Both the position numbers and the translations under genes were made by a program. From Leptolyngbyaceae cyanobacterium (lineage in GTDB: Bacteria > Cyanobacteriota > Cyanobacteriia > Phormidesmidales > Phormidesmidaceae): a stretch of DNA of 64,000 bases. A model generated the notes under the pieces. The model saw nothing but the letters and a program-made list of their open reading frames with translations, was not told where the DNA came from and ran no database searches. The DNA is taken from assembly GCA_965263355.1 (NCBI GenBank), contig CBDHHL010000046.1, positions 1-64,000 of the forward strand, written 5' to 3'. Positions 20,348-60,357 of the stretch are shown piece by piece (position 1 is the first letter of the stretch; each line of letters opens with the position of its first letter).

Positions 20348-21472
20348 TTAATATTGCGCTACATCAGGGAAATGCAAACCGTCATCGACCTTATTGTTTT
20401 CAGCGCCTAGGTCTTCCTCAGCCGCTGGTAAAGCTGCCGCTGAACCAGTATCCAACTGGGTAGGACGTACACTTCCGCGATAAAGTTCTAATTTCCGTAC
20501 TGCGGCAATATTGATAATGCCCATACCAATGTCTTCCCAACACTGCCAGGTAATAACATTCGCAACTTTATCAATATAAAACTTCAACTTGTTCAGCATG
20601 TAAAACTTGCCGAAGAATTGCGGAGAAGTAAAACTGTAAATATTTCCAGGACGCAAAATGTCAGACTTAACTGTACGGCATACGCGCTTGCCTAGCATTT
20701 TGTTATATCGGTAACCTTCGACAACAGTCTCAGATTGAATCTTGTCGCCGTTGTCTTCTACAGTCCACTGTAGTTGGTCATCATGATCTGGTTCACAAAA
20801 TAGCAGAAGGTCACAACGAAGTCTGTTGCTACTATGTAGCTTGAACAGACTAACCAAGTCAGGGCGTTGTACAGGTCTAACTGTGAAGTCAGTTCCATCC
20901 GCAGCCAGCGCTAAAGAGCCCTTTACAACTGAAGTAGCTTGCGCATTTGCATTACCTGCACGAATATTAGTAGCATTATAGGCCACCGTCGTCGTCGTGT
21001 TTGTGGTGGTTTGTAGCGCCTGGACTGCTGCTTCAGAGTAAATAAGACCTTGTCGATCTTCAATCTCTTGAACATCATTTATCGAATTGTTTTCAATAAT
21101 TTTGGTTATAGGCGCTTCATAGGCAAGAAGCTCCTGTTCTGGTTTCTCAAATTTCTCGGAAGAGATTGTGAAGAATGGGATCTCTGCCTTTGGCGCTCTG
21201 ATCAATCTTGCGGTTGGCTCACCACGGAATGTCATGACCATTGCACGTGATTTAGGCTCAACATCAACAATCTTTACCAATGTATCGTGATTAGTAGAAC
21301 GTTGACAGTCCTTACGAGTCACTGGCTCAGGAGGAAGAATATGTCGAAAAAAAGAAGTCTCTCTAAGGCGGTCACGAATAAAGGTACCACCTACCTCAGC
21401 CATCTTCGCTTTGCCTTCTGCGCTGTCCAGCCGTTTGCTAAATAGTTCTACTGTAGCATCTACCAAGCTCAT
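20348..21472 (-). CDS. Major capsid protein (HK97 fold inferred)
   Basis: 374 aa; IRDRLRETSFFRHILPPEPV, EIPFFTISS, NDVQEIED; follows the protease, scaffold and decoration genes; GGAGG Shine-Dalgarno. Confidence 0.85.
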   Translation of the reverse strand: MSLVDATVELFSKRLDSAEGKAKMAEVGGTFIRDRLRETSFFRHILPPEPVTRKDCQRSTNHDTLVKIVDVEPKSRAMVMTFRGEPTARLIRAPKAEIPFFTISSEKFEKPEQELLAYEAPITKIIENNSINDVQEIEDRQGLIYSEAAVQALQTTTNTTTTVAYNATNIRAGNANAQATSVVKGSLALAADGTDFTVRPVQRPDLVSLFKLHSSNRLRCDLLLFCEPDHDDQLQWTVEDNGDKIQSETVVEGYRYNKMLGKRVCRTVKSDILRPGNIYSFTSPQFFGKFYMLNKLKFYIDKVANVITWQCWEDIGMGIINIAAVRKLELYRGSVRPTQLDTGSAAALPAAEEDLGAENNKVDDGLHFPDVAQY

Positions 21473-27419: not shown

Positions 27420-27426
27420 CTTACTA

Positions 27427-29016
27427 TTACTTCTTTCTTTTTTTCTTTCGCTGATATGCCGCAGCCCCACCAACTGCAACTCCCCCATAGAGGGCCCCTG
27501 ATCGCGCTGCGCCTCGCCTTATTTTTTCTCTCCCATATTGTTTCATTGGCTCCGCGAGGTCCTTAGCGTTAGTTATAATCTCTTGGACACGTGGCTTAGA
27601 ATATAGATGGCCTAGACGTTTAGCATTTAAACCCTCTCTAATATCCCTAAAGGTTGCAGCATTACGCACACCTTTTAATACTTTCTTAGTCCCAGACAAG
27701 ACTCCAGCCGTTTTGGGCGGAGCTGATAAAAAGGAGCTTTGCTTCTCTTGGGATTTCTTTTTATGTCTCTGATATGCCGCGGCGCCAGCGCCAGCAACTC
27801 CTCCATATAGAGCCCCTGATCTCAACACGCCTTGCCTTATTTTTTCATTTCCTGAGTCTTTCAAATTTTGACTCGTAGCACTCCAAGAATCAGAGCTCTT
27901 ACGAGGATGAAGTCTTTGGTGATCACTTCGAGCATACGTATTACCTCGCCTTCTAGCATTTAAACCCGTTCTAATATCTTTAAAGGTTGCAGCGTTAGCC
28001 ACACCCCTTACTGCTTTTTTAGCCCCAGACAAGACTCCAGCGGTTTTAGGTTGGGCTAAATTTTTTTGGACCAAGTCATAAACTGAGCTCTTCTTTTCTT
28101 TAGATTTTGCTCTTCTATAATATTGAAAGGCACCGCCTGCCCCTATTGAAGCTGCACCATAAAGTTTTCCAGCATCCTTGCGCCCTTCCGAGACCAAACG
28201 CTTACCGTATGCCGCCTGAACATCTCTAGCAAGCCCGCTTGTGTCTCCTAAAGTTTTTTGTAGCTTTCTGCCTTCTCTCACCTTTTTCAAGGTAGCTGTA
28301 TCTCCCAACCCCTTAGCTATATTTTTTACCGTGGATACAACGGAACTTTTCTTTTCTTTAGGTCCAGGCCTAGAATTTTTGCCTCTAGAGTCTTTGTTTT
28401 TTGAATCATCAGTTGGTCGAGGTCGTAAGGCTTCTTGTTCTTGTCTGACTCTGGGATTGCCTTTTCCAAAGGCTATATCTGCCATACCCGGCTGAATTAT
28501 CATAGATGATTGACCTGAACTTCTAGCCAGACTCTCTCTGGCTCTTACAAGCTCATTGACGGTCTGTATAGGCAATCGACGCATGTCTATGACTTGTTGG
28601 ACAAACTCTGAAGCTACCAATGGATCAGATGCATATTCTGGATTTAAATTATGCAAAGTATTAAAAGCCAACTCCACTTTGCCTGGATCTGCTTCTGCTA
28701 AACCATCATTAACAGCAAGCATATTGTTGAAAGCTATCTCTTTCCTTTGCCTTGATCCAATAGAGTTGATCAACTTTCGACCCTGATCTACTGCTGTGTT
28801 TGCCGCAGCATAACCAAGTGTTGCTAGACCTGCCGTAGCTAAAGACTCGCCAACATTTCTAAAAGCTTGTCCAGCATCGAGAGACATCTTCGTTAGCAAG
28901 TCTTCCAACTCTGTTGAGACCCCAGCATCCTCACTAGCCTGCTTCAAAAGTGAATCAGCATTTCTTCGAGCTTCGATAATCTCTTCTTGTGAGAAACCCA
29001 TTTGTTCTAATAACAT
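27427..29016 (-). CDS. Head-module protein with three tandem cationic Gly-rich C-terminal modules
   Basis: Repeated KTAGVLSG...NAATF.DIR.GLNA...EKIR.G..RSGALYGGVA...AAAYQR. Confidence 0.8.
   Translation of the reverse strand: MLLEQMGFSQEEIIEARRNADSLLKQASEDAGVSTELEDLLTKMSLDAGQAFRNVGESLATAGLATLGYAAANTAVDQGRKLINSIGSRQRKEIAFNNMLAVNDGLAEADPGKVELAFNTLHNLNPEYASDPLVASEFVQQVIDMRRLPIQTVNELVRARESLARSSGQSSMIIQPGMADIAFGKGNPRVRQEQEALRPRPTDDSKNKDSRGKNSRPGPKEKKSSVVSTVKNIAKGLGDTATLKKVREGRKLQKTLGDTSGLARDVQAAYGKRLVSEGRKDAGKLYGAASIGAGGAFQYYRRAKSKEKKSSVYDLVQKNLAQPKTAGVLSGAKKAVRGVANAATFKDIRTGLNARRRGNTYARSDHQRLHPRKSSDSWSATSQNLKDSGNEKIRQGVLRSGALYGGVAGAGAAAYQRHKKKSQEKQSSFLSAPPKTAGVLSGTKKVLKGVRNAATFRDIREGLNAKRLGHLYSKPRVQEIITNAKDLAEPMKQYGREKIRRGAARSGALYGGVAVGGAAAYQRKKKRKK
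27430..28050 (-). repeat. Intragenic imperfect tandem duplication with 333-bp period
   Basis: CCCAGACAAGACTCCAGC-GTTTT-GG recurs at about 27691 and 28024, along with other shared blocks such as CGCCTTATTTTTTC/TGCCTTATTTTTTC. Confidence 0.9.
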
Positions 29017-30376: not shown

Positions 30377-32110
30377 TCAAACAATGTCCAACTCTTCTCG
30401 ATATAGTCCTTCATAAAGAATATCTTCCGTCTTTTCTGGGAGAATAACATCACGACGAGGCTTGTACTTCATGGACGCCAAAAAGCAATAACACAAAGAG
30501 TGGAAAGTATCATCAGAATCACTCGGGCCTCGCTTATAAACATTTTGCTTCATAGTTTCACTATATTCAGAAAAGATATTCAGCATATCTGAAGCAAAAG
30601 GTGATTCCCATTCAGACCAGTTAGGAAATTGAAATACATTTCTACGCTTTACAGCATTAAAAACGTCAGACATAACTTCCGTGCGATGGCATAAAAATCT
30701 TGGCACTCCTAAAGACGCCTCATAAGATACTTTCTTCTTCTGCCTACCTATCCACTGATAGCGACATATTTTTTCCGCCCCGAATCTCCGTACAAGCTTA
30801 TCATTTTGATAAAAGCCTCCACCGTAGTCCACCCCAATGTAAATCACATTAAACATCTCGCACAGACCAAGTATGATATCCAATTGATGGTCTGGTTCTG
30901 CTTCTTTTCCCTTGCACTGCTTGGCGTAAAAAATCGAAAACTTGTGTGGAGCCCAAGGAAAATAGCCACCCAGCAAAATAACAGTGAAGGAGTTTTTTTC
31001 TCCAGTACCCCAGTCGATACCCATGAATACTGGATGTGCAGCATACTTCTTCTTCACATCAGCATAAGCAAACATTGAAAGCTCTTCAGAACAGTTATCT
31101 AAAACATCTTGTTGAGTTAATGGGCGGGTACCGGAGTCAAAAGATCTACCCAAAACCTCATTATAAAATTTAACCCGAGAATAAGTCTCATACTTACTTA
31201 TGATGTCCTGCCAATGAATCCAACTTACAATCAACTGAGGAATTCTATAACCCATATATGGATTACTCAAACGAACGTTCGGATTCATAGAAGCCCATTG
31301 AGCATCAGGATCATTTGGGTCAATCCGTTTCCCGCATTTGTCGCAAATAAGGCCAAATTTACCTATAGAGGCCTCAGAGGTCACATTCCAATGCCAAGAA
31401 CTAGGATCGTTTGGAGTCCCGTGCGAACGACAAGGAATCACCCACTCATTTTGCGTAGAGAATTTTGACCAGTAATGCTCGATTGCATTATCTAATGATT
31501 TAGGTGTACCGGAATATGTAAACAGCCTATGCTCAGAGTGAGAAGCACACTCTTCTATAACAGGAATATTGTCTAACAAGACATCCTGAAACTCATCGAT
31601 GGTAATCAGATCTGCGGGGACTCCACGACAACGGTCAGCATTCAAAAATGCAAAACGCAAAGATACTTTAGAACGATTAATAAACCCCTTTTCCATGAGG
31701 TTCGCTGTCAATTTCACATTTGTAAAAGATTGAAGTACCTTAGAAGTCTCTATGGCCTCTTGAATCCTAGTTCGAGAAAACTCTTTTGTTTGCATGTGTG
31801 ATGGAGAAACATACAAAGCTCTAAAACCAGGAAACAAAAATGCATAAGATAACATCTTGTTCCCAAGCAAAGTTGATTTCTCAACCTGCCTGCCCGCCAT
31901 TAGAAGTAGACGATTAGCATCTGTGTCGTAAATCTCTCGAAGGTACGGCCGACCTACAAACGAAAAATTGGTGTAATCTCCTTTTACTGGAAGAAAAAAA
32001 GCCGCCTCAGTGAATTCAGAAATGGAAATAACCAAAGTCGCATCGTCTGCAATACGGTCTTCTGAATACTCATCGGTCAATGGCTTGTCAAACCGAGCAG
32101 CATCATCCAT
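30377..32110 (-). CDS. Terminase large subunit
   Basis: RPYLREIY, variant Walker A AGRQVEKST, Walker B ITIDEFQD, SGTPK, nuclease MGIDWG, DDTFHS. Confidence 0.9.
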   Translation of the reverse strand: MDDAARFDKPLTDEYSEDRIADDATLVISISEFTEAAFFLPVKGDYTNFSFVGRPYLREIYDTDANRLLLMAGRQVEKSTLLGNKMLSYAFLFPGFRALYVSPSHMQTKEFSRTRIQEAIETSKVLQSFTNVKLTANLMEKGFINRSKVSLRFAFLNADRCRGVPADLITIDEFQDVLLDNIPVIEECASHSEHRLFTYSGTPKSLDNAIEHYWSKFSTQNEWVIPCRSHGTPNDPSSWHWNVTSEASIGKFGLICDKCGKRIDPNDPDAQWASMNPNVRLSNPYMGYRIPQLIVSWIHWQDIISKYETYSRVKFYNEVLGRSFDSGTRPLTQQDVLDNCSEELSMFAYADVKKKYAAHPVFMGIDWGTGEKNSFTVILLGGYFPWAPHKFSIFYAKQCKGKEAEPDHQLDIILGLCEMFNVIYIGVDYGGGFYQNDKLVRRFGAEKICRYQWIGRQKKKVSYEASLGVPRFLCHRTEVMSDVFNAVKRRNVFQFPNWSEWESPFASDMLNIFSEYSETMKQNVYKRGPSDSDDTFHSLCYCFLASMKYKPRRDVILPEKTEDILYEGLYREELDIV

Positions 32111-37098: not shown

Positions 37099-38292
37099 TC
37101 ATGTAGTTGTATTGGTTTGCGAAAGAATCTGTTGAAGTTGCGCTACATCTGAAGCCAACGCTGGAAAAGCTTGAGGAGACCCTGGTGGCGAGGATGGGCC
37201 TGCTGTCCCTTGTACCAGCTTATTTAAAACAGAAGTCAGTAAATCAACTAGAGCAGTGCCTAAAACAAGTGGCTCACCCCCAGAACCACCTACTGCTACA
37301 TTGCCTCCGAGCACAATAGAATCCGCATCGACATCCAGAGTTGAGGCCTCAACTTGCGCGCCAGATTGGGACGTCAATGAGAATTGACCTATACTAGATA
37401 AGGACATCGTTCCTCCAGCACTCATTGACAAGTTCCCGTCTGTAGCTTCAAAAAGCAAATCACCCTCCTCCACGGTCAATGTCGTATTCCCTGTAACGAC
37501 TTGAGTCCAAGTACCCTCTATATCCCAAGTGACATTACCCTCTTGAGATACTTGAAGTGTAGCTACTGTTGCTGCGTCGGAAGCTCCAGTAGCGTTTACT
37601 AACAAGGACAATCTTAAACTCTCATCCTCTTGATGAGAACCCATTCGAAGAACCGCAGTGTGGCCTACCTCATTTGCTTGCAATTTGCTCTTTATGCTAA
37701 ACGAAGTTAATTGATTCCCATCTGTATCTTCTACAGTTCGACGAACCGTATAATCTAACTCTCCTGCTAAAGATTTTAGCTGGTAATTTTCTGCTACATC
37801 CCGGATCAGATTACCCAACGGAATATACATACGTTGAGCTAAAGGCGTGGAACCAACTTGAACTACCCCACCCCGACGAAGAATTATAAAATTTTCATCT
37901 CGAGTTTTTAGCATCATATCACCAGGATTTAAGACGCTTCGATTTGAACGGTAATTAACAGCTGGTGCTTCAGATTCTGCCTCATCACGTTCATCTACAG
38001 GAGCTGCCCAGCCTAAAACAAATGGCTGCGCCATAGCACCCGTAGAAGGCGTACACACCCAGACCAGAGAACCTACTTCTGGCATTACATATATCCCTTC
38101 TCCATTAGCAAAATGGAAATAAGGAGACATACATTGTACCTCTAAAAACTCTCTTCCACCATATTCAGAGATGGCATCCACCGTCCAATCCTGAACATTC
38201 ACATTAACTATACGAGCTTTTTCTACCAGAGCAGGAAAAAAGCCAGATTCAGCAACACCGCCAGTGACTGATTTCTTTCGTAACGTTCTCAT
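37099..38292 (-). CDS. Baseplate spike/hub protein (gpV/Gp5-like OB fold plus beta-helix)
   Basis: EGIYVMPEVGSLVWV...FVLG, then G/T/S beta repeats and EPLVLGTAL. Confidence 0.7.
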   Translation of the reverse strand: MRTLRKKSVTGGVAESGFFPALVEKARIVNVNVQDWTVDAISEYGGREFLEVQCMSPYFHFANGEGIYVMPEVGSLVWVCTPSTGAMAQPFVLGWAAPVDERDEAESEAPAVNYRSNRSVLNPGDMMLKTRDENFIILRRGGVVQVGSTPLAQRMYIPLGNLIRDVAENYQLKSLAGELDYTVRRTVEDTDGNQLTSFSIKSKLQANEVGHTAVLRMGSHQEDESLRLSLLVNATGASDAATVATLQVSQEGNVTWDIEGTWTQVVTGNTTLTVEEGDLLFEATDGNLSMSAGGTMSLSSIGQFSLTSQSGAQVEASTLDVDADSIVLGGNVAVGGSGGEPLVLGTALVDLLTSVLNKLVQGTAGPSSPPGSPQAFPALASDVAQLQQILSQTNTTT

Positions 38293-41200
38293 TTAGTATT
38301 TCCATGCTTCATCTGGGTTCTTGGATTGCCCAAACTCTAATCCAAATGCCGCAGCGGGGATAGGGTGTGTTCCGTGCAGATCACTGACCCATCCTTCAGC
38401 AGCGCCGTCAAGGATTGTATCTTTTAAGTGCGTTGCCTGCATCCGAGCAAGCCAATCAGACCTCAATTCTCTTGGAAGAACGTTGGTGCCTTTAAGGATT
38501 GGTCTAGCAAGTAATTGTTCCCCTTTAGTCACTGAGGAATTGTATCTGTTCACCTCGGAAGCAGCAACCTTGTCTCCCTTTAGGAAAGTTGGGTGGTCTT
38601 TTGGGTCTTCTATCTCCGCCAAATTGGTAAGCGTCCTTACAAACACTTCCGCGTTTTTACGCAGGATGGGCGTACGGCTATAACCACCCAAGTTGGTCAG
38701 TTCATCCGTAACGTAATTTCTTACAGCAGAGATGCCAGTTAGTGGAAGCATCTCCAAAGGATTTTTAGGGCCGCCAGAAAGTGCATCTCCTTTTTTAACT
38801 TTTTGCCCCTTAGACACAACAGGAGATTGTCTAGCAGATAAATAATGTTTAGTGCCCGACACATAAATATTCCAACCTCCAACCACTTCATCTTTTTCAA
38901 TCTTGTCTATATTGCCAGATTGTTTAGATAGGACTGCGGAACCTGGCAAATTCTGTGGGAACTTCACCAGCTGCACAACCCGGTCAAACTGACTTGCCAC
39001 ATCGGAACCTTTGGCTCCAGCAACGCCACCGGTGTGAAAGGCATTCATAGCCATCTGTGTCAAAGGCTCACCTATTGCGTGCACAGCCTTTACTCCCAAG
39101 TTGTCTCCCTTTTCTGGGAATTGACCCATTTCATTTAGACCATAACAACGAGAGCACACGCCATCATGAGCTTGGCATTTTAGAGGTGTTCGTGCAGTAA
39201 AGGCTTTTACTCCGTTGTTCTGCATGCGCGTGAGCATTTGGGGCGTAACCACTTCTCCCGCCTTCAGAACACCCTTGCCTTTCAAAGAAACATCCACAGC
39301 TAAAACCCTATCGATAGCTTGATTGTCTGTGGGCGAAAACATGTTTCCTTCTTTCGTTCCACAATCTATCTCAGACACCAGATGGTCCATAGATGTCTGC
39401 ATCATCTCTTTTACCTGAGCACCAGGAAGCTGCGTTCCCTTAACACGACCAATAGTACCCTTTCTAGCGCCATACATAGAAGCCCAATAACTAGCAGTAT
39501 CCAAACCTTCAGAGTAAGACTTCTCTATAGAAATAGGGACAATACGCTCTTTACTGTCAACAACTGCAAGAGGTGTGATTGTCATTTGCTTAAACTGGTC
39601 CCAGTTACCTCTGGCTTGAGCCTTAACCCACTGATACATCTTGTTATTAGATTTATCGAATTTGGGCTTTGTTGCCTTATCTAAAACAATGCGAGCCTTA
39701 TTGTACAACTCTGCAAGAGCCTCATTTCTCTTGGCCTTGTTTCGAACTGACTTGTGGATCTCTCTTTCTCTTTCTTTAACTTGACGAAGGATATTATCCC
39801 TAGGCCCTTTCATGGCCTTAAAGTCTTCTAACCCAAAACCATAACCAGTCGCATGCACATTACCCATGTCCTTCAATGTGTCCGCTACATCCCGAAAAGT
39901 TTCTGCATCAGCTTTTTGCCCAATCTCACTCAAAAGCTTAGTTAAGTTCCTCTTATCAAGTTGTTGACCTTTAAATAGGTGCTTATATTCCTTAGGGAGT
40001 GATTGCTCTATAAGCATACGTCCAACTGTGGTGTGCTTAGCTTTATTTTCAGAGGCCTTCTTAATTCTATCCTGCAAGAAATTAGGGACCTCTTTCGTCG
40101 CATCTCTGATCGTAACTACGTCTGTGATCCCAATCTTTCCTTGTTTAACCGCTTTGGCTGCCGCAGCACCTGTTTGAAACACCAAGCCTGTTTTCTTTCC
40201 ATCTGTTCTTGTTAATTGGTGCAGCCCCAATAAGGATTCATGAGTAGGTCTAAACATCAGACCTCCATGAGAAGAACTAAACAGGTTTTTTGACGGAAGC
40301 ATTTTCCAGGCCTCATCTACCGCCTTATTAGAAATAGGGACAAAGGCAGCCATCTTATCTCCGTCAAAGTCGGCATTAAAACCACCTGTAGCGAGAGGGT
40401 GAATTTTAATCGCACTGCCTTTTGTCAAGACGGGCTTAAAGGCTTGGACGCCGTATTTATGTAATACAGGGTCACGCTTCAACAGTACAGGCCTGCTTTT
40501 CATCTCAGCTTCTAACATGTTGTAGACGATCGGCTCTTTGTCTTTTATAGCCTGCACTGCTTGTCCTGGAGCATAGCCAGATTGTCTCATTCGTCGCATG
40601 ACGAAAGGTTTATAAGCCGCCATTGCAGCAGATTCAGGCAAAGCGACCTCATCCATTCCCAAACTAGGCTCTGGAACGATTACGCCTCGCATGGACATAT
40701 CCTGCCGTTTACCAATGACTTTAGATTGGAAGAAAGCATTCTTCGGTTGAGTCATGCCCGACTTTCCGCCAATCAACTCAAGGATGCCCTTTCGGTGTCT
40801 TTGTTTGTACTCCATCCCAGTTAAACTCAGACCCTTTAGACCGTCATACAGACTGGCACCCAAAGATGTCATTTCTTCCGCCTCTTTTGGTACACCTAAA
40901 TCTTGGAGATCTTTTAACTGTGTGTTTATCGTACCCAACTGACGATACATCTCAGTCACATCGTCAGTCCTTATGTCACCGCTATCTAACACAGTTACTG
41001 GTCGCATTTTGGGCGGTAACACAGGAATATGTTGTAGCGTATACGCCTGACGTGCATTCAACTTTCGCTCATTCAGCACTCTCAGATATTTTATTTTTCT
41101 AGAAGCATCATTTAACCTGGGGCCTTTCAAACCTTGTACAGAAGCTTCCAGCTTTTGTAACTCACTACTAACATCGATTTTATCTAGTGCAGAAACTATA

Positions 41201-44200
41201 GCCTCTGGACCTGTGGCACCATCTATCTTTTGAGACCCGGCAATAACATTTTCATAAGCCTTTTGAGTTAGCCCTAACAAGGAACGTATAGGCTTCTCAA
41301 ATGTCGGGTTAGGGAGACGTTCTGTTAATTTCATGTGTCCCCAACGCTCACCTAACCCATGAGTTATAGAAGTCGTTCCCGTAATTTTCGGATCGAACAA
41401 GCCTCCAGGCTCAGGCAAGATCTCATTCGCGCTTGAATGCTTCAAAGGTATATCTGGCTTGGTGATTTCGCCATTAGACATTGATAGGACTTGCTCATCT
41501 GTAAGTGGCCCTAAGTGTAATTTGTTGCCCTCTTTATTTACGTCAACTCCCATAGTTTTGAGGTACCCAACAAATTTACGATAAGCGAAAGGAGTTTCTG
41601 GGGCTGGAGGAACTTCTCCATTTTGTAAGGCTGCCCAGTAATCATCATTTCTTTCCCCCTTTATAGCCTGAAATTCGCGTATGTTCTCTCGAGCACCGTG
41701 AGCCAACATGGCGTAAAGTCCCCCAGAATCCATTGTGACGCCAGAAGCTTTTCCACCTTGTTTGGGTTGCATGTTTGAATCGTAACGACCTACATTTCTA
41801 GCAGACACACCCTTTTCAGCCATGTGCTCGAGCTTTAGAATGTATTGTGGACCAGTCAAAGTTTCATAAACTTCTCCCGATCTTGGGTCAGTTATCTTTT
41901 CCTTATCTGAAATACCTACCTTCTTTAAGTCCTTCAAAACCTTTTCTGTATAATCTTTTATGTCTGCATTAAAGTTATCAACAACGTATGGCTTTCCAGT
42001 TTTTTGGGCTATCTTTCCCGCTGCTGTTTCCAAACACTGACCTAAATTAATTCTCGTACTAATTCCCGCAGGGTTTAGAAGTACATCAACAGGTCGACCA
42101 TTCTGTTTATGAGGCATCTCATTATCTGCAACAATATGAGTTACAATACCCTTATTTCCATGCCGACCCACTAACTTGTCACCAATAACAACAGGAGACT
42201 GCGACTTTACATGTACCGTGATGTCTTTACCGCTTTTAAAGACTTCCACAACTTCGCCTTCATAATCTGCTTCCCAAATAACTGGCTGAGCCTTTACAGG
42301 ACGAAATGCTGATTTACTAATCTTCTGAAGCTCTTGTAACTCTCTTGATGCTTCTGTCTTTTTGAGCACTGCAATCAACAAATCCCCGGGCTTTACACGT
42401 GTACCCTTTTTCACAACCCCAAGTTCATCTAAATTATTTGATTGTCGGTTTGTCCACTGGCCTGCAGTTTCTGCCATGAATCTGTTTTTATCTAAAATCG
42501 TAGACTCACCAGCTTGTACAGAGTGTCGTGTCATATGCTCTGAAGTGAGTTTTTTAGCAGCAGTTTCGGAGATGACAATTCCGTCCTCAAAGTTGTATCC
42601 CTGATAAGGCATGTAGCTGACTTCTAGATTTTTTCCTAAGGCCAATTTTCCATTACGTGTAAAATTTGTATCTGCTACTAGCTGGCCCTTCTTTACAGTA
42701 TCGCCCACCTTAACTAAGGGCTGACTATTTATGGCAGACTTATTATCATTCAAAGGGAAATCTTTGTAGAGTTCTACTTCATGTTTTTTTCTATTGGTAC
42801 CTTGAATAATAATACGGTCTTCTTTTACATCTATAACTTGACCATCCACAGGAGCAGTATGGGAGTTAAGCTTTCCTAATACCTCTTCGAAAGTAAAATT
42901 ACCGTCCGTCTTGTTTTGGACAAGAGGCTCTTCTCGGTCAACCAAAGCCACCGACTGCTCTAACTGTTTAGCCGCCACTGAAGTTCGGTTACCTTGATTG
43001 TTTTGCAAAAACGGGATGGAGTTAGCAGAAAAATCAAACATACCCTTTGGACTACTAATTACATATTGAACCTTATTGGCTGATACAGCACGTACCTCAT
43101 TAGAGGCATCCATAACCTTAACTTCCGTATTCCTAGGAACGTAATCCTTGCCTACCTTCTTGTACTGATCTGGGAATGCAATAATGGCCTTATTTGCTTG
43201 TTCTGAATTTAGCCACTCATATTGTTTGGTCTTTAGGTTGAAAACACGGGTCTTCAACTCTTTACCATGCTTAGCAGCGCCTAGTGCTATTTGAAGGATA
43301 CCACCAATTCTTGAAGATTCTGGTGTTTGAACAGGATCTAAAAAGCCCATCTGAGTTGGATTTATAGACTGAGCTTCAGGAGTAAATTGATTCTCATTCA
43401 AAATACCTCCTTCACCGAAGATAGTTGTTCTACGATGACCGCTAATAAACCCCATCGGATTTAGCTGCTTGGGGCGGTCAGACACAGAACTAGAAGAGAA
43501 AAAACTATCTATAGCCTTACCAAATGTATCTATCGTAACAACCTTAGAAACCGAGTCGGCATTATCTATTTTTCGCTTTAGCTTTCTTTGAATTTCTGAA
43601 CGTCCTCGAGTACTGATTCGCTCTTCTAAGTGATCTTCTGCCCCAAACACATCTTTGAATTGTAATTGGTCTCTCTCATCAGCTTCTTCCACACCACGTA
43701 TAACATTTAAAAGCTTCTTACTGCCAAGGACTAGAGCAGAACCATCTACTTGTTTTAATTCCTTGCCTAGAGTCAACTTAGTTGAATCTGGTCTCAACTC
43801 CGTTTTGTCAAAAGCCGCACGTATATTTGTTTGTGCTTCTTTCAAAGAGTCGGAAGATTGGCCTGTAAGTCGTTGACTAAGATGCAAAAGATTTGACGTC
43901 TCTACCCGCCCGGTAACTCGGTTGGCATTAAGGATTTCCTTTCCCCAAGTTCTCTCTAAATCTTCATCATCCACGCCCAACGTTTTTAAGATCGAGTAAG
44001 CAGGATAGCTTTTAGTGCCATACTGAATTCGGAATTTCTTTGTGTCGGAATCAAAGTCCATGCTGAACCCTAACCCCTTTGACAGGTTCCACTCCTGAGA
44101 AATACCACCCGCTTGAGTTTCTTTTGTGTAAACACCAGATTTTAAGCGGAGTTGATTGTGAATTTGCCGCTCTTCACCTCTTACAATGTATGAAAATCTT

Positions 44201-44493
44201 CGAGTTGGTTTAGGCAAAGTCCCCAAAGAAACGCGTCCTGAATCAATAACTTTGCCTGTTGCTTTATCTACCAGCTCAACCTCTCCGTAGATTGGAGCTC
44301 CCCACGTTTTGCCTTTCAGCTTTACATCCTTCTGTTTTGCTACGGAATCCACATGAGTGTTGTCATCCTTCACAGATACACTCTTTAGCCTCAGGATCCG
44401 TTTTTTACCTTCAACAGGGAAATGCGTGGAGATAGATTTTATTGTCGCTTTGCGCAACGCCTCAAAAGTCTCTTGTGGATCTAAACCGGCCAT
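38293..44493 (-). CDS. Single-polypeptide DNA-directed RNA polymerase (beta-beta' fusion)
   Basis: Beta motifs GYNFEDG, GDKLVGRHGNKG, LNPAGISTRINLGQ, YILKLEH; beta' motifs GKRQD, RDPVLH, NADFDGD (40357-40377), GARKG, GEPLTQMAMNAFHTGG. Confidence 0.97.
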   Translation of the reverse strand: MAGLDPQETFEALRKATIKSISTHFPVEGKKRILRLKSVSVKDDNTHVDSVAKQKDVKLKGKTWGAPIYGEVELVDKATGKVIDSGRVSLGTLPKPTRRFSYIVRGEERQIHNQLRLKSGVYTKETQAGGISQEWNLSKGLGFSMDFDSDTKKFRIQYGTKSYPAYSILKTLGVDDEDLERTWGKEILNANRVTGRVETSNLLHLSQRLTGQSSDSLKEAQTNIRAAFDKTELRPDSTKLTLGKELKQVDGSALVLGSKKLLNVIRGVEEADERDQLQFKDVFGAEDHLEERISTRGRSEIQRKLKRKIDNADSVSKVVTIDTFGKAIDSFFSSSSVSDRPKQLNPMGFISGHRRTTIFGEGGILNENQFTPEAQSINPTQMGFLDPVQTPESSRIGGILQIALGAAKHGKELKTRVFNLKTKQYEWLNSEQANKAIIAFPDQYKKVGKDYVPRNTEVKVMDASNEVRAVSANKVQYVISSPKGMFDFSANSIPFLQNNQGNRTSVAAKQLEQSVALVDREEPLVQNKTDGNFTFEEVLGKLNSHTAPVDGQVIDVKEDRIIIQGTNRKKHEVELYKDFPLNDNKSAINSQPLVKVGDTVKKGQLVADTNFTRNGKLALGKNLEVSYMPYQGYNFEDGIVISETAAKKLTSEHMTRHSVQAGESTILDKNRFMAETAGQWTNRQSNNLDELGVVKKGTRVKPGDLLIAVLKKTEASRELQELQKISKSAFRPVKAQPVIWEADYEGEVVEVFKSGKDITVHVKSQSPVVIGDKLVGRHGNKGIVTHIVADNEMPHKQNGRPVDVLLNPAGISTRINLGQCLETAAGKIAQKTGKPYVVDNFNADIKDYTEKVLKDLKKVGISDKEKITDPRSGEVYETLTGPQYILKLEHMAEKGVSARNVGRYDSNMQPKQGGKASGVTMDSGGLYAMLAHGARENIREFQAIKGERNDDYWAALQNGEVPPAPETPFAYRKFVGYLKTMGVDVNKEGNKLHLGPLTDEQVLSMSNGEITKPDIPLKHSSANEILPEPGGLFDPKITGTTSITHGLGERWGHMKLTERLPNPTFEKPIRSLLGLTQKAYENVIAGSQKIDGATGPEAIVSALDKIDVSSELQKLEASVQGLKGPRLNDASRKIKYLRVLNERKLNARQAYTLQHIPVLPPKMRPVTVLDSGDIRTDDVTEMYRQLGTINTQLKDLQDLGVPKEAEEMTSLGASLYDGLKGLSLTGMEYKQRHRKGILELIGGKSGMTQPKNAFFQSKVIGKRQDMSMRGVIVPEPSLGMDEVALPESAAMAAYKPFVMRRMRQSGYAPGQAVQAIKDKEPIVYNMLEAEMKSRPVLLKRDPVLHKYGVQAFKPVLTKGSAIKIHPLATGGFNADFDGDKMAAFVPISNKAVDEAWKMLPSKNLFSSSHGGLMFRPTHESLLGLHQLTRTDGKKTGLVFQTGAAAAKAVKQGKIGITDVVTIRDATKEVPNFLQDRIKKASENKAKHTTVGRMLIEQSLPKEYKHLFKGQQLDKRNLTKLLSEIGQKADAETFRDVADTLKDMGNVHATGYGFGLEDFKAMKGPRDNILRQVKEREREIHKSVRNKAKRNEALAELYNKARIVLDKATKPKFDKSNNKMYQWVKAQARGNWDQFKQMTITPLAVVDSKERIVPISIEKSYSEGLDTASYWASMYGARKGTIGRVKGTQLPGAQVKEMMQTSMDHLVSEIDCGTKEGNMFSPTDNQAIDRVLAVDVSLKGKGVLKAGEVVTPQMLTRMQNNGVKAFTARTPLKCQAHDGVCSRCYGLNEMGQFPEKGDNLGVKAVHAIGEPLTQMAMNAFHTGGVAGAKGSDVASQFDRVVQLVKFPQNLPGSAVLSKQSGNIDKIEKDEVVGGWNIYVSGTKHYLSARQSPVVSKGQKVKKGDALSGGPKNPLEMLPLTGISAVRNYVTDELTNLGGYSRTPILRKNAEVFVRTLTNLAEIEDPKDHPTFLKGDKVAASEVNRYNSSVTKGEQLLARPILKGTNVLPRELRSDWLARMQATHLKDTILDGAAEGWVSDLHGTHPIPAAAFGLEFGQSKNPDEAWKY

Positions 44494-44561
44494 TAATTCC
44501 TCTCACAATAACACAGTCAACTGACTGCAAGATTATCATAATTGTTGGGATAAGAAGACTA

Positions 44562-44684
44562 GTGCGTAGTTATTACGAAGAACAAAACCAGTCCTCTACA
44601 GAGGATTTCAACAAGCAGCACCTCGCCATGCTAGGCGAATCTCAAGATGAAGAAGAAAAGGAAGAAGAACAATGTGGGCAATGA
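44562..44684 (+). CDS. Small acidic peptide (40 aa)
   Basis: GTG start; E-rich; TGA overlaps the next ATG. Confidence 0.4.
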   Translation: MRSYYEEQNQSSTEDFNKQHLAMLGESQDEEEKEEEQCGQ

Positions 44685-44773
44685 AAAATTTAGCAGCAAA
44701 AGTACTGGCTATAATTGTGATGGAAGTAGCCTCCATTATAATCTCCGTCATTGAAAAATGGCACGACAAATAA
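44681..44773 (+). CDS. Small hydrophobic peptide (30 aa)
   Basis: MKNLAAKVLAIIVMEVASIIISVIEKWHDK; ATGA overlap with the upstream ORF. Confidence 0.45.
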   Translation: MKNLAAKVLAIIVMEVASIIISVIEKWHDK

Positions 44774-44779
44774 CGGGTA

Positions 44780-44829
44780 AAAGAAAAAAAGAAGGAGAAA
44801 AGGAAGGGAGGATGTGTTCCTCCCTTCCT
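44780..44829 (-). terminator. Intrinsic terminator after the portal gene
   Basis: Perfect 12-bp stem AGGAAGGGAGGA/TCCTCCCTTCCT with 5-nt loop (44801-44829), followed on the minus strand by a U-rich run; 3 nt after the portal stop. Confidence 0.8.
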
Positions 44830-44832
44830 CCC

Positions 44833-46698
44833 TTAGGTAGTAGACTCAGGCCCTCTTCTCGGTGCCTTTTGTTGTGGGTCTGGACTTTGGGCAGAGCTTT
44901 GATGCGCCCCTTGTCGCTCTGCTAAAGCTGGTGCAACAAGCTCCCAAAACATAGGATTCTCTTGTTGGATTTGAGCGATATATTGTGCTCGAGTAGCCTC
45001 ATCGAGCTGGTCTAACTGAGCTGCAACACTTTGAACTAATTTTTCTATCGGCACACCTCCAGGAGTTACTGGAGACTCTGCGCCAGGAACACCAGATTGA
45101 GGCATTTCTGGGCTCTCTTGCCCCTCCTGCGGCTGTTGTTCCATTGGCGTGCCTGGCGCCAGTTCCGACATAACTTTCTGAGCTCGAGCCTGATATTTTA
45201 TGCCTGTTAACTGCGCTTCACCTTGAATCTGTGATTGAGCCACAGCCTGACTTAGTTGACTCTCTGCCAGCAACTCCTGTTCAACCGCAATCTGTTTTCT
45301 TTCTGCGTCAGCATCCCATTCTGTATCTTCCAGCAAAGTCTTATCTGAAATCTTCCCTGCTTGGTTAAGCTGTAAGTTGAATGCACTTCTTTGAAGGTCA
45401 TCCGCCATTTTAAACCTGCGAAAATATGCAGGCGCTGGCACCCAACTCATGAAAGCACCAACTCGTTCCATGATCCAATTGACCAGATTGATATGGTCCG
45501 ACTTATAATCCAAGAAATGATTTTCCAACATTCTCAAGGAAACACTCGAACCAGAGTAACTTAAGCCTCCGAATATAAACTCATTGGGAACACCCATACC
45601 AGCCACAATATGTTCAGCCCAAACTCGGTATTCTTGGCTCAGCATCAAAGCACGACCTTGTGCCCCTAATGTTTGTTGACCTATTGGAATAGGTAAAATA
45701 GGAATATAGTTGTTATCCAGCCGCCAACGTTGAATCTCTATCTCTATCTGCTTCTTCCAAGCACTCAAGTTAGTTGTCGGGTAAGGATCGCTAGAACCAG
45801 AAGCAACCTGCGGAAAAAGGACTCGAAGAGGTACAATATGCTCTACAGCTATAGCCTCCTGAGCTTTTCTCAATATCTGCAAATAGAACACGTCTTTCAA
45901 CACAGGAAGAATCATCGAAAGCCCCCAACCCTTATCCTTCTGAGCGATTGTAGGCCTTTTCATATGAAAAATATTATTCGGGTTAAAAATAACATCCTTA
46001 TTCTGTTTCATTGCCTCAATGAAACTCGTAGGAGTTTTTTCAATAATATCCTTCTTCCCCATTTGAATATCATTTTTCAAGGTAGTAGGTATGCTATAAT
46101 AATAAGTGTTCTTACCTACCAATTCATTATGTCGAATTGTTATTCGTTCTGGGCTCCAACGAATCAGATGTATATCTCTCCAACTTTTTACATACGTATC
46201 CTGGGCTTTAAACTCTCCATAATGACCGCACTTCTTACAGGAACCTTGATAACCAAAATTACGGAATATGTAGCTTGTCTTTTCTATAGGCATGGAATGC
46301 CCACAATTTGAGCACACTAAAAACTTTTTGAATGGGTAATTCACAGAGATAAAGCAATTACCGTAACAATTATAATCTAATCCTGCCTCCACTTGAAATT
46401 TTTTAAACTTCAATTGCAACTTAAAAAAGTCATCCCACTTACTTCTAAGATTTTCGTCACTGGAGTCAATAATTAAGTCAGTGACTGGGTACTCAGACAT
46501 CTTGTAAACAACAGAGTTTATCAAGGGATTTGATATAAAATAGTACTCACACCACTTCAATAACGTCTTAAACGACGTAGGTAAGTACATATGACTTATA
46601 TCAAAAAATGGAGAAGGATACCGAATTGTCCCCACATGATCGGAAAGCAAAGATCGACTTGCAGGGCCAAAACTTCCAGGAACCGGAGTCACACTCAT
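44833..46698 (-). CDS. Portal protein with zinc-ribbon insertion and Q/P-rich tail
   Basis: NPLINSVV, YGNCFI, IFHMKRP...GWGLSMILPVLK, GVPNEFIFG; CSNC...CKKC insert. Confidence 0.85.
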   Translation of the reverse strand: MSVTPVPGSFGPASRSLLSDHVGTIRYPSPFFDISHMYLPTSFKTLLKWCEYYFISNPLINSVVYKMSEYPVTDLIIDSSDENLRSKWDDFFKLQLKFKKFQVEAGLDYNCYGNCFISVNYPFKKFLVCSNCGHSMPIEKTSYIFRNFGYQGSCKKCGHYGEFKAQDTYVKSWRDIHLIRWSPERITIRHNELVGKNTYYYSIPTTLKNDIQMGKKDIIEKTPTSFIEAMKQNKDVIFNPNNIFHMKRPTIAQKDKGWGLSMILPVLKDVFYLQILRKAQEAIAVEHIVPLRVLFPQVASGSSDPYPTTNLSAWKKQIEIEIQRWRLDNNYIPILPIPIGQQTLGAQGRALMLSQEYRVWAEHIVAGMGVPNEFIFGGLSYSGSSVSLRMLENHFLDYKSDHINLVNWIMERVGAFMSWVPAPAYFRRFKMADDLQRSAFNLQLNQAGKISDKTLLEDTEWDADAERKQIAVEQELLAESQLSQAVAQSQIQGEAQLTGIKYQARAQKVMSELAPGTPMEQQPQEGQESPEMPQSGVPGAESPVTPGGVPIEKLVQSVAAQLDQLDEATRAQYIAQIQQENPMFWELVAPALAERQGAHQSSAQSPDPQQKAPRRGPESTT

Positions 46699-51821: not shown

Positions 51822-52329
51822 GCTTAAAAAAACCTCGACTAAAATAGGTAAACCCAAGAAGAAGAAATCCGAGGCTGAGAAAGCTGTCACGGAGTTTGAG
51901 GAGGTACTAGAAGAGTACGAAACAGAAGTAGCAGCATGGAGAGAGGAGTATAAAGAAGCTGCGAGCTCTTTAGATACCTTAGAAGAAATGCGGGCAGAAG
52001 TGATTGCAAAAAGTAATGCAGCAAAGCAACTAGTATCCAAAGAGGGGGGTACTATCGGACGATTCATTCTTACGGAAAGGAGGAGTAGTCCAAAGTATTG
52101 CGGAGAAAAACTATTGAACTTGATTAAAAAAAGGAAAATAAGCGACAAGCAAATTGCCGGCCTTTTCCGAAAAAAGGCAGTTGCTTTGGTCAAGATCGAT
52201 CAAAGCATGGCGAAATTACTTGTTGATGTGGGGGATGAAAACCTTCAACAGGTATTGTCTGACATATTTGACCCTGGTGGAGATTTAGTTTCCAACGCTG
52301 TGACCGTACCAAAATGGGACAAGAAATGA
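51814..52329 (+). CDS. Hypothetical protein with coiled-coil N-half
   Basis: Operonic ORF. Confidence 0.65.
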   Translation: MSRLKKTSTKIGKPKKKKSEAEKAVTEFEEVLEEYETEVAAWREEYKEAASSLDTLEEMRAEVIAKSNAAKQLVSKEGGTIGRFILTERRSSPKYCGEKLLNLIKKRKISDKQIAGLFRKKAVALVKIDQSMAKLLVDVGDENLQQVLSDIFDPGGDLVSNAVTVPKWDKK

Positions 52330-52341
52330 CACGTGTCATTT
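52324..52341. promoter_or_regulatory. Perfect 18-bp palindrome AAATGACACGTGTCATTT, candidate parS or operator (copy 2)
   Basis: Contains the same 16-mer as 876-891; spans a stop/start junction. Confidence 0.55.
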
Positions 52342-60000: not shown

Positions 60001-60357
60001 CTATTAGGTCGAAGAAGAAATTTACCTGACATCAATAGTAATAATTTCTCCATTAGAAGTCATGCAGAGCGTGAATCCGTAAACTCTATCATCCAAGGAA
60101 CTGCTGCTGACCTTATAAAGACAGCAATGATAAATATCGAATTTGATGACATCCTAAATAGCATGGGTGTAGAAATGATAAATCAGATTCACGATGAGTT
60201 AACTCTTCTAGGGCCGACTAAGGAACAAGATGAAGAAGCATGCGTCGAACGCATCAAAAACTTCATGGAGCATCCCTTCGAAGAAGGCAAACACCCTCTA
60301 TTAGTGCCCGTACCTGTGGACATAAAATTAGTGTCGAATTGGGGAGAAGCAAAATGA
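57085..60357 (+). CDS. polA: Family A DNA polymerase with 3'-5' exonuclease and one intein
   Basis: FDTETHG, WNLKYD, YASLDA; TRTGR, motif A DYAQLEMR, motif B RSDSKAVGFGIFYG, IQGTAAD, motif C QIHDEL. Confidence 0.96.
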   Translation: MALNLKIPPVTAALDDESAAQARQAFLNKIEQEPEDWIGFDTETHGLKIVKEGVKPTRADPLDWMNDTVTFWSLAAKFNGEYKRFCFDQNHFQFFAPVLEHPKAKLAGWNLKYDAHIAWNCGINIWNCARAVDFLMAGSMLDENVTRSEMSLKQVTPRGYNSEWRRAVARTVQSEMGYTDFCDIPREVYLEVQEEVERRITPWEGFQMTPFKALFKGCIDPNTRKPAVEFQTSLYDLPVDRVANYASLDALAHLWLGEHIQQVMQAHKSEDYCAYPNMWDYYCEAEDPITQVLWRLERRGLPLNKKHLEALVDPLEEEIAAITKEINRKAQKPINLRSPQQVANFLYGDFPKDAYEDPRWRKIIPAWTGTLQPKTDAETLELLAAAGNDAAKLINRHRKIEKIYGTYVTKLIFCHDYFKDGRVHTQFRQNGTRTGRCSTGDPVNSQNLPNPENDEFQIRVAFCSKSSKEKSVTKKPYKRKLVCGDYAQLEMRIMAHFCLYKCMRISVCEGDTRAISILVNQRRKPYVRSFDFSLNTHVNKQITNHFKNGDHVSYAPTTAGMKPEDWLIVRHDAAPNGMPLIITPQHRVLRSDGSKIPIGDLEVGDYLLYDEPKLIGLHLQMVIIQVINNKEFKHRIEWKENEGVPYEHRTFDEKYCQFKQNVLKQLEAKNHGSPSLNHIKRRIRPTKQLWEIVDNMADKHRPKKELLEQIGPAGLAIWYCDTGTIYGHLGSSFIKISMPRTCAEDVEILNKLGTNFITMSNGFGLLSKDFESFFQIVGPYIPWCMSYKVPKEFHHYIGTASEEWEVPMPPIRPVTIIEKRPAKLEDLERGYGSKYDIEVEDTHNYFAQNILVSNSTDNAMIDAIWSGKDMHCITVERMWGIPYEEVKEAKKAKEAGTATEEQLGHAKKRSDSKAVGFGIFYGAQEKNISIRLECSRERARELINLYFKAYPKVKRFINETHWRCRQMQFVTTLLGRRRNLPDINSNNFSIRSHAERESVNSIIQGTAADLIKTAMINIEFDDILNSMGVEMINQIHDELTLLGPTKEQDEEACVERIKNFMEHPFEEGKHPLLVPVPVDIKLVSNWGEAK
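58576..59646 (+). mobile_element. Intein (357 aa) with degenerate LAGLIDADG-like domain
   Basis: HF|CLYK start, block B TPQH, GLAIWYCDTG, YDIEVEDTHNYFAQNILVSN|S end. Confidence 0.92.

Follow-up and report, generated by a model that had tools for sequence, protein, structure and literature searches.

Here we describe a single open reading frame that encodes both large subunits of a multisubunit RNA polymerase, beta followed by beta', on a 64,000-nucleotide stretch of DNA (the window) which comes from an uncultured virus of bacteria. Judged from its sequence, the gene product is probably an active, streamlined two-barrel DNA-dependent RNA polymerase of a lineage related to Salmonella phage Arash, packaged together with a phage sigma factor and starting transcription at a GG-N-ATAAG element. 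A preliminary description of this DNA had proposed the single 2066-residue beta-then-beta' frame without naming its strand. The frame is borne out and lies on the minus strand, where it comprises the following features:

38293..44493, minus: gene for the single-chain beta-beta' RNA polymerase, 2066 residues, ATG start.
41539..44493, minus: beta half (residues 1-985), without the counterparts of E. coli beta 226-351, 935-1046 and 1126-1179.
38296..41538, minus: beta' half (residues 986-2066), missing, relative to E. coli beta', the zinc domain, residues 146-176 and 947-1132, and the C-terminal tail.
42289..42372, minus: flap-tip helix (residues ~708-735), docking site for sigma region 4, with the interface seen in a relative's model.
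42151..42177, minus: basic residues K773 and K781 of the beta barrel (E. coli K1065 and K1073).
41344..41376, minus: 11-residue Cys-free loop (residues 1040-1050) in place of the beta' zinc-binding domain.
40828..41025, minus: lid and clamp helices (residues ~1157-1222), docking site for sigma region 2, also from a relative's model.
40357..40377, minus: catalytic NADFDGD (residues 1373-1379), conserved in all 120 homologs listed.
39424..39426, minus: bridge-helix proline P1690, at the position of E. coli beta' S793.
39145..39363, minus: C-terminal zinc site (C1711, C1773, C1780, C1783), kept in 117-118 of the 120 homologs listed.
39025..39057, minus: trigger-loop motif with H1820 (E. coli H936).

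Within this one frame, the Pfam domains are arranged in the order Rpb2_3 (residues 342-405) and Rpb2_6 (548-913, E 6e-62), followed by the beta' domains Rpb1_1 (1150-1211), Rpb1_2 (1329-1398), Rpb1_3 and Rpb1_5. Alignment with E. coli RpoB and RpoC places the junction between V985 and N986 (window positions 41539/41538), in agreement with the position near 41540 proposed before. The chain is 25-28% identical to E. coli and carries the features of a cellular-type two-barrel enzyme, namely bridge helix, trigger loop, clamp, flap and second zinc site. Both the DxDGD triad on the beta' barrel and the two lysines on the beta barrel are found; the NADFDGD motif is intact, as had been claimed, at residues 1373-1379, and K781 is present in 120 of the 120 homologs listed. 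The bridge hinge and the position of E. coli R933, which is Asn in the window's polymerase, diverge from cellular-type polymerases. The rifampicin pocket is altered relative to bacteria at the positions of E. coli Q513, F514, D516, H526 and S531. An AlphaFold2 model of residues 620-1815, spanning the junction, reached a pLDDT of 88 and a pTM of 0.83, and its top Foldseek matches were bacterial beta' chains (E 1e-54, TM about 0.6). Both halves reside in one chain in all 120 homologs listed and in 62 of 63 IMG/VR ORFs, the remaining one being cut by its own contig end. Thus, a chance or frameshift artefact is ruled out as the origin of the fusion.

The absence of the beta' N-terminal zinc domain and the retention of the C-terminal Cys cluster, both stated in the preliminary description, were confirmed. 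Eleven Cys-free residues connect G1039 to W1051 where E. coli has C70, C72, C85 and C88, and C1711, C1773, C1780 and C1783 are all present. This gap comprises 6-14 residues without any Cys in the 120 homologs listed; it is equally devoid of Cys in 63/63 IMG/VR family rows, as compared to four Cys in 68/68 bacterial rows. Since fusion and Cys loss occur in all 120 listed homologs, they represent a lineage trait of these ~180-kb myoviruses. Deletion of the zinc domain leaves E. coli polymerase active with sigma70 on lacUV5, and the domain is required for sigma28 and weak -35 promoters (bioRxiv 10.1101/2020.01.02.893370). It would be dispensable in the phage enzyme because this is predicted to serve one sigma and one strong promoter class. 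Furthermore, the bridge helix carries a proline, P1690, in 120/120 of the listed homologs and 60/63 IMG/VR rows at a position where bacteria have Ser or Ala (68/68 rows). The helix is broken at P1690 in the AlphaFold2 model, and the proline may pre-kink it. In an archaeal polymerase, an engineered proline at the equivalent position makes the enzyme superactive; natural prolines at this hinge position are reported only for plant Pol IV/V (PMC2988716).

The window's phage belongs to the Arash-like lineage, as seen from the branch of its polymerase, the portal-adjacent location of the gene and the shared capsid. The lineage comprises Salmonella phage Arash, the Vibrio phages D69, D148 and D181 (Arash and D69 being cultured) and many uncultured phages; these relatives infect different hosts, range from 44 to 62% in GC content and, in more than 180 independent sequences, share the same polymerase architecture. 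The surroundings of the polymerase gene contain the following elements:

44833..46698, minus: probable portal gene, the conserved upstream neighbour, 35% identical to Arash gp204, which is annotated as portal.
44798..44832, minus: terminator-like hairpin directly after the portal gene.
37099..38292, minus: baseplate hub/spike-like gene abutting the polymerase stop codon (PHROG 4540, E 5.6e-6).
30377..32110, minus: terminase large subunit of the GpA ATPase type.
20348..21472, minus: major capsid protein, sharing 28% identity with Arash gp226.

Homologs of the portal gene and of the hub/spike-like gene were found near the polymerase gene in 60 and 49 of 69 loci, respectively. The capsid protein had no Pfam match at E up to 1. 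The terminase matches PF05876 and not PF03237, that of Arash weakly matches both. A conserved 641-residue neighbour gave no usable ESM Atlas match, so that no alpha substitute was identified. Arash (gp206, gp216 and gp10; OQ632216; PMC10585845) and the three Vibrio phages share with the window the polymerase branch, the fusion, the lack of the zinc domain, the hinge proline, a polymerase gene directly after the portal gene, a homologous capsid and the same sigma family and promoter word. They differ in that their polymerases are only ~32% identical to that of the window, that the part of beta' beyond residue ~1454 is encoded by a second gene, and that they possess a second, RpoS-like sigma. 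The protein listing in the Arash paper (PMC10585845) does not describe the fusion, the zinc-domain loss or the promoters.

In line with the preliminary description, no alpha, omega or sigma gene was detected in the window by Pfam and PHROG searches covering 57 and 49 of the window's ORFs, and the best match of a sigma profile within the window had an E value of only 0.51. The tail/baseplate gene block that holds sigma in the relatives is absent from the window. Neither a scan of metagenomes (nine loci, none near-complete) nor protein searches on a contig of matching length recovered the window's own sigma, and the available part of the nearest relative (G001, 70% complete) contains none. As the analysis covers the window rather than the whole genome, gene absence for this phage is judged from its relatives. 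A sigma70-type gene is present in all nine IMG/VR genomes that are at least 90% complete, five of which lie outside the six-row sigma profile, and in D69 and Arash. Overall, the family was found in 22 of 31 genomes, all nine misses being at most 70% complete. All six profile members match the SigB/F/G, FliA and RpoD models below cut-off, and the family matches the SigA structure with E 4e-17. Pfam Sigma70_r2 alone exceeded the cut-off in 5/20 genomes, so that the custom profile was needed to find the family. Among the relatives, neither alpha (PF01000 in 0/20 and PF01193 in 0/12 genomes) nor omega (PF01192 in 0/20 genomes) exceeded the cut-off; the positive controls of these searches were recovered in 14/14 cases. 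The preliminary description would have been refuted if alpha and sigma genes elsewhere in the genome proved to be required. Judged from the relatives, half of this probably applies, in that a sigma gene would lie elsewhere in the genome; no alpha gene exceeded the cut-off in the genomes searched. Moreover, when the polymerase fragment of a relative (G011) and its cognate sigma were subjected to complex prediction, the pair scored 0.81 and the best control 0.00; the runs shared at least 93% of contacts, and the partner pLDDT was at least 82. The mark applied was reached by 116/157 solved pairs and 2/215 mismatched pairs. Because similar complexes have already been solved, this score may reflect memorisation by the predictor.

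Upstream of non-virion genes in Arash we found the element GG-N-ATAAG (-14 to -7) in sigma70 geometry, a putative promoter. In this phage, an unbiased ranking of the 8-mers preceding minus-strand genes puts GGTATAAG first (14/64 versus 0.51 expected), and 28 of 39 sites are followed by a ribosome site and a start codon. The window contains one full site at the conserved place:

44526..44561, plus: candidate promoter for the phage sigma (TGCAAG, 15 nt, GGGATAAG, predicted start 44561), pointing away from the polymerase gene.

No ribosome site follows it, and none of the eight GG[TCG]ATAAG sites of the window has a ribosome site and start codon within the next 50 nt. In 36/64 loci the element lies no more than 200 bp from the start of the polymerase gene, as compared to 4.3% of random windows and 1/64 on the opposite strand, an enrichment that is partly circular as the pattern was chosen in view of an earlier result. 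Independent tests are provided by Arash and by positions outside the searched pattern, which show T at -1 in 29/35 and a purine at +1 in 34/35 sites. The earlier view that promoter recognition is unknown was thus too pessimistic, since a phage sigma70-type factor in all complete relatives, together with this conserved element, is a strong candidate for it. The GG-N-ATAAG sites have a weak -35 element, with AA in 26 and 29 of 35, which counts against dispensability of the zinc domain. Read on the opposite strand (CTTAT..), the promoter word was considered to serve the polymerase gene; this reading was rejected, as it is in the GG-N-ATAAG orientation that a ribosome site and start codon come after the word. 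Literature searches on GGTATAAG, a mReC fusion and the Vibrio phages yielded no relevant work beyond the papers cited here; subscription papers lay outside these searches.

Taken together, we infer that the polymerase gene would be expressed late together with the head genes and that its product would be packaged into the particle with a phage sigma of the Arash gp10 family. After injection, both would start transcription at GG-N-ATAAG before early and replication-related genes, and the covalent beta-beta' link may take over part of alpha's assembly role. According to PMC10585845, Arash particles contain gp206 as the most detected protein (128 unique peptides), gp216 and the sigma gp10; the second sigma, gp196, is not in the particle list. 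This proteome is permissive (116/252 proteins, with primase and ribonucleotide reductase among them), and carry-over is conceded as a possibility by its authors. The Arash polymerase is only 32% identical to that of the window, with beta' in two pieces. A fully specified form of this proposal, i.e. a virion-delivered machine of two polypeptides, the beta-beta' chain and a sigma70-type factor, with no alpha, omega or zinc domain, a kinked bridge helix and a -10 element of its own with G at -7, has in our estimation an even chance of being correct.

Since the alpha-facing surfaces are partly kept, with the beta segments (E. coli 1205-1230) and the beta' 515-550 helix still alignable, host alpha might be used, and the fused chain could need a host alpha dimer, perhaps with omega, to assemble or work as a hybrid phage-host enzyme; all cellular enzymes use alpha (PMC7598289). 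We regard such dependence as unlikely, as the phiKZ non-virion polymerase functions without alpha or omega (PMC8287921). Furthermore, the fusion is lineage-wide in relatives that differ in hosts and GC content, and the omega-binding beta' tail is absent. Phage sigmas such as T4 gp55 and SPO1 gp28 redirect the host core enzyme. Slightly less probable still is a non-virion middle or late polymerase made after infection, where the phage sigma may direct the host core to GG-N-ATAAG. The sigma-on-clamp model would be expected on a host core too, many non-structural enzymes are in the Arash particle list, and a host-like TAnnnT word, whose reader is unspecified, precedes the polymerase gene in 21/44 loci versus 7.2 in shuffles. 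Against this, the polymerase gene lies among head genes in 60 of 69 loci and the sigma gene within the block for tail and baseplate, locations expected of products that are made late and packaged; gp206 ranks first in the Arash particles, from whose list gp196 is missing, and the GG-N-ATAAG sites stand before non-virion genes.

The packaged Arash-like enzyme also has to be set against two other origins. In our trees, which included 22 and 16 bacterial rows, not from all phyla, as well as 2 verified mReC rows with 9 relatives and no human-gut mReC, the fused lineage forms its own deep branch outside the bacteria. This agrees with the earlier expectation of a cellular-like phage enzyme outside bacterial rpoBC and unlike the split phiKZ enzymes. 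The preliminary description had further placed the phage in a described lineage of tailed phages with deeply branching cellular-like RNAPs, which corresponds to the mReC phages (Weinheimer and Aylward 2020, PMC7481178). Like those, it is a tailed phage with alignable beta and beta' matches and an NADxDGD motif, branching outside cells; the zinc domain is absent from one mReC type as well (5/5 rows), and uniting both in a single clade was not rejected (p-AU 0.125). This assignment is nevertheless not supported, and that the window simply encodes a fused mReC enzyme working as those do is improbable: free trees keep the two apart (fused 100, mReC-type 98-99 SH-aLRT, backbone open), and mReC has separate genes (in the 22 rows covered of the 234 in the supplement of PMC7481178, and in L206, L207 and L220), the gene order beta'-beta, Ser/Thr instead of the hinge proline, a PF07068 capsid and mostly PF03237 terminases, families that the capsid and terminase of the window do not match. 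Six IMG taxon ids of fused-family contigs are not in the mReC contig list, a weak point since fused genes may have escaped that screen. That the gene is a degenerate bacterial rpoBC captured in recent times, or an artefact of assembly, is highly improbable. Among solved structures and Pfam models, the nearest ones are those of bacteria, and long branches can hide a nested origin, but none of 80 bacterial loci exceeds 32% identity, bacteria form their own branch with support 100, nesting with Pseudomonadota/Myxococcota is rejected (p-AU 5e-47), and the architecture recurs across the lineage.

The virion and non-virion polymerases of phiKZ and AR9 are likewise two-barrel enzymes without alpha or omega, one set being packaged, but consist of four or five chains in two sets per genome with no sequence-recognisable sigma (PMC7598289, PMC8287921 and PMC13282480). 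CrAssphage/YonO-type polymerases also unite both barrels in one polypeptide, but, as described in PMC7481178 and PMC7824862, they are too divergent for the COG0085/0086 models, whereas the window's chain aligns collinearly to bacterial beta-beta' and has retained the flap, clamp, lid and zipper. With a bacterial core and a group 3 sigma it shares the fold, catalytic residues, second zinc site, sigma-docking surfaces and promoter geometry; it differs in being fused, ~680 residues shorter and without the beta' zinc domain, in the bridge proline, the G at -7 and the altered rifampicin pocket, and, judged from relatives, in lacking alpha and omega genes. Natural rpoBC fusions exist in Helicobacter and Wolbachia; our literature search found no paper on them.

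Reviews describe multisubunit polymerases of jumbo phages as split over many chains and without recognisable sigma (PMC13282480, PMC7598289, PMC7824862). A true sigma working with a one-chain core would reveal which bacterial parts (alpha, omega, zinc domain, inserts) are dispensable, and the bridge-helix proline is a natural test of the hinge model. As Arash is cultured, what is predicted for the promoter, for insensitivity to drugs and for packaging is testable, and a compact orthogonal transcription system is a possible use. If the two-polypeptide machine proves true, no smaller sigma-dependent holoenzyme would be known, and its phage branch would equal mReC in depth yet be separate from it.

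In the window ORF, Pfam found the domains of both large RNA polymerase subunits in one frame, those of beta first and those of beta' after. Its main features are as follows:

44493 to 38293, minus strand: single-chain beta-beta' polymerase ORF, 2066 aa
Residues 1373-1379: catalytic NADFDGD, present
K773 and K781: beta lysines, present
H1820: trigger-loop histidine, present
C1711, C1773, C1780 and C1783: second zinc site, present

Alignment with E. coli RpoB and RpoC placed the beta/beta' junction at V985/N986 (window 41539/41538), with an aligned identity of 25% for beta and 28% for beta'. Eleven Cys-free residues stand in place of the beta' N-terminal zinc domain. Counterparts of E. coli beta 226-351, 935-1046 and 1126-1179 and of beta' 146-176, 947-1132 and the C-terminal tail are also missing; flap tip, clamp helices, lid and zipper are retained. 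An AlphaFold2 model of residues 620-1815 across the junction (pLDDT 88, pTM 0.83) had bacterial beta' chains as its best Foldseek matches. The one-chain ORF with intact NADFDGD, the missing beta' zinc domain and the kept C-terminal Cys cluster of the preliminary description were all borne out.

The best 120 matches of a protein search comprised the query and 119 relatives with 40-74% identity on contigs of up to 204 kb. Among these listed matches, both halves were in one chain in 120 of 120, the junction measured 13 residues in 119 and 14 in one, and the zinc-domain gap (6-14 residues) held no Cys in 120 of 120. In IMG/VR, 62 of 63 polymerase ORFs were fused, the remaining one being truncated by the contig end, and a portal homolog was located inside the polymerase locus in 60 of 69 loci. 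The one-chain architecture without the zinc domain is a lineage trait. The cultured relatives, Salmonella phage Arash and Vibrio phages D69, D148 and D181, are 30-32% identical to the query; in Arash and D69 the fusion takes in beta and only the first part of beta', the last ~600 residues being encoded by a second gene. Inteins were seen in many polymerases, portals and terminases of the family (L001, L002, L051, L070, P0008-P0120), with intein-bearing polymerases of up to 3591 aa; the window polymerase and portal have none. Separately, a Vicinamibacterales MAG carries rpoB and rpoC in one 2697-aa ORF (L142:4977-13070), either a real fusion or an assembly error.

Trees of beta' (62 rows, LG+G4) and of beta plus beta' (49 rows, C20 mixture, 13 near-duplicates or rows omitted to save time being left out) were quick ones, without bootstrap and with long rows included. 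In both, the fused family, Arash and D69 formed one branch (SH-aLRT 100); bacteria (SH-aLRT 100) and mReC-type enzymes (98-99) each formed their own, the backbone being open. Nesting of the fused family with Pseudomonadota/Myxococcota was rejected (p-AU 5e-47), and the proposed position outside bacterial rpoBC was supported for the bacterial rows in the trees; a captured rpoBC or an artefact is extremely improbable. The union with mReC was not rejected (p-AU 0.125), yet it was absent from the trees. Three mReC contigs were recognised in IMG/VR (L206, L207, L220) by taxon id and length, both matching Dataset 1 of PMC7481178, and their beta' and beta are separate genes. The mReC families named there, PF07068 for the capsid and PF03237 for the terminase, had no match in the window capsid and terminase. 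Given the separate genes and own branch of mReC and the unmatched families, the window enzyme should be kept apart from mReC, although its predicted mode of action is that of an mReC-grade enzyme; the membership originally assigned to it was not supported. That it is a plain mReC member, a reading that overlaps the others, has a low probability.

The fused family is not alone in lacking the beta' zinc domain: the mReC type with L206 and L207 has none either (5/5 rows), whereas the domain is present in a second mReC type and in TM30, Carin-5 and GN1. One IMG/VR mReC-type contig (L204 and L214) carries two polymerase sets, one with and one without this domain, possibly a virion/non-virion pair. 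In Cobetia phage Carin-5, an annotated sigma gene immediately precedes beta' and beta; together with Yersinia phage GN1, Carin-5 forms a further long branch with the motif DYDGD (L200:3541-10366, L201). Zinc-domain loss is compatible with catalysis, since in bioRxiv 10.1101/2020.01.02.893370 E. coli polymerase minus the zinc domain retained sigma70 activity on lacUV5; sigma28 and weak -35 promoter activity were lost. The -35 element found here is weak too, which sits uneasily with the loss.

In the bridge helix, the counterpart of E. coli beta' S793, just before Gly-Tyr, is P1690. Proline occupies this hinge in 120 of 120 of the matches listed and in 60 of 63 IMG/VR family rows; in bacteria the residue is either Ser or Ala (68 of 68 rows). 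The AlphaFold2 helix is broken at P1690, and the following Tyr is also variable. Thr is kept in 3 of 63 members (L065/L066/L081 group), of which L066 and L081 (TGY/TGF) branch near the base and offer a natural comparison for the hinge proline. According to PMC2776397 and PMC2988716, S824P in the same Ser-Gly-Tyr hinge of Methanocaldococcus gave about 210% activity, and natural hinge prolines are reported for plant Pol IV/V only. By analogy, P1690 may speed the window enzyme.

The window is phage DNA encoding capsid, terminase, hub/spike, PolA, DnaB, primase and RecA, most genes being virion and replication genes. Near-identical perfect palindromes with a CACGTG core, resembling bacterial parS, lie at 873-895 and 52322-52340, with a partial copy at 26089-26110; no full palindrome was found in G001, the nearest related genome (70% complete). 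ParB is encoded at 9684-10829. A polyvalent-type 1006-aa head-operon protein (24468-27488, minus strand) has an inorganic pyrophosphatase (E 5e-37) and GNAT domains inserted in it, only its N-terminal part being common to the relatives' versions. A 529-aa head-operon gene has internal repeats of 106-127 nt (27430-28057), and short K-x-A motifs recur in several head-operon proteins. The PolA gene (57085-60357, plus strand, 1090 aa) has an intein-like segment between two PHROG-model stretches.

As initially described, the 64-kb window holds no recognisable sigma, alpha or omega gene. Of 20 related genomes, 5 had a Pfam Sigma70_r2 match above cut-off, but the weak matches form one family with Arash gp10. 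A custom profile of 6 rows, to which Arash and 4 of the genomes at least 90% complete contributed, matched 22 of 31 genomes including D69 and Arash. All 9 genomes with a completeness of 90% or more were positive, and all 9 misses were at most 70% complete. Members of the gp10-type family resemble SigB/F/G, FliA and RpoD models with scores under the respective cut-offs, and they match SigA structures at E 4e-17. The sigma gene sits in a tail/baseplate block missing from the window and from partial G001; the window phage's copy, not found in protein and metagenome searches, is therefore expected beyond 64000. The predicted complex of a polymerase fragment of the related genome G011 with its own sigma scored 0.81 (best control 0.00; the mark was reached by 116/157 solved and 2/215 mismatched pairs), with at least 93% of contacts agreeing between runs and a partner pLDDT of at least 82. 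Contacts are predicted on the flap tip, the zipper, the lid and the clamp helices. As like complexes are already solved, this prediction shows likeness to them, not binding.

Close to the polymerase start, 36 of 64 loci have a word in common (4.3% of random windows, 1/64 on the opposite strand, shuffles mean 5), a count whose search pattern was picked after the word was first seen in the data. On the strand directed away from the polymerase gene, the word reads GG-N-ATAAG. Genome-wide, intergenic sites numbered 13/32 in related genome G008 (1.6 expected), 5/13 in G011 (0.5) and 10/24 in G001 (1.2), and a ribosome site and start followed in 18/28, 8/13 and 8/15, respectively (random 13-17%). 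Outside the searched pattern, 35 polymerase-side sites from 60 loci have T at -1 in 29, a purine at +1 in 34 and A at -32 and -31 in 26 and 29. Judged by this spacing, the element is a putative sigma70-family promoter with its hexamer at -12 to -7; sigma70 promoters have a conserved T at -7, as opposed to G here. In an unbiased count, GGTATAAG was the top 8-mer upstream of Arash minus-strand genes (14/64 vs 0.51 expected), most of which have metabolic, replication or unknown annotations, and a ribosome site and start followed 28 of 39 Arash sites. Arash plus-strand virion genes have a different word, CTAAAAT (5/26 vs 0.09 expected). Sites with a ribosome site made up 54/117 in fused-family, 0/11 in mReC-type and 4/50 in bacterial loci. 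The window has one candidate:

44526-44561, plus strand: candidate full promoter site at the conserved place

None of the window's 8 GG-N-ATAAG sites is followed by a ribosome site. Downstream (44555-44700, plus strand), where relatives often have a small gene, there is no clear gene, only an 18-codon acidic ORF; the candidate promoter might serve this ORF or an RNA with its end close to the portal terminator. For promoter recognition, previously called unknown, the relatives supply strong candidates, a sigma70-type gene and the GG-N-ATAAG element; no sigma gene was found in the window itself.

In PMC10585845, gp206 is the most detected Arash particle protein, with 3516 spectra and 128 peptides; the particle list includes gp216 and sigma gp10 but lacks gp196, the second sigma. 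This evidence for packaging of polymerase and sigma is suggestive only, as the list has 116 proteins and its authors allow for carry-over. A non-virion enzyme, with the phage sigma acting on the host core, appears unlikely. In 21 of 44 loci a host-like TAnnnT word lies upstream of the polymerase start (7.2 in shuffles, with a maximum of 14). Alpha and omega models produced no match above cut-off in 20, 20 and 12 related genomes (controls positive 14/14). That the polymerase requires host alpha is a minor possibility.

In the passages covered, four reviews (PMC13282480, PMC7598289, PMC7824862, PMC8287921) describe jumbo-phage enzymes as split and sigma-less and do not mention the fused lineage. 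Literature searches on fusion in mReC, Arash, GGTATAAG and the Vibrio phages, in a library short of most subscription journals, returned only the papers cited here. Overall, the polymerase observation is real, and the fused lineage is uncharacterised and testable: its polymerase would probably be synthesised late in infection, packaged with its own phage sigma, injected and then used at GG-N-ATAAG promoters, with transcription proceeding without phage alpha or omega.
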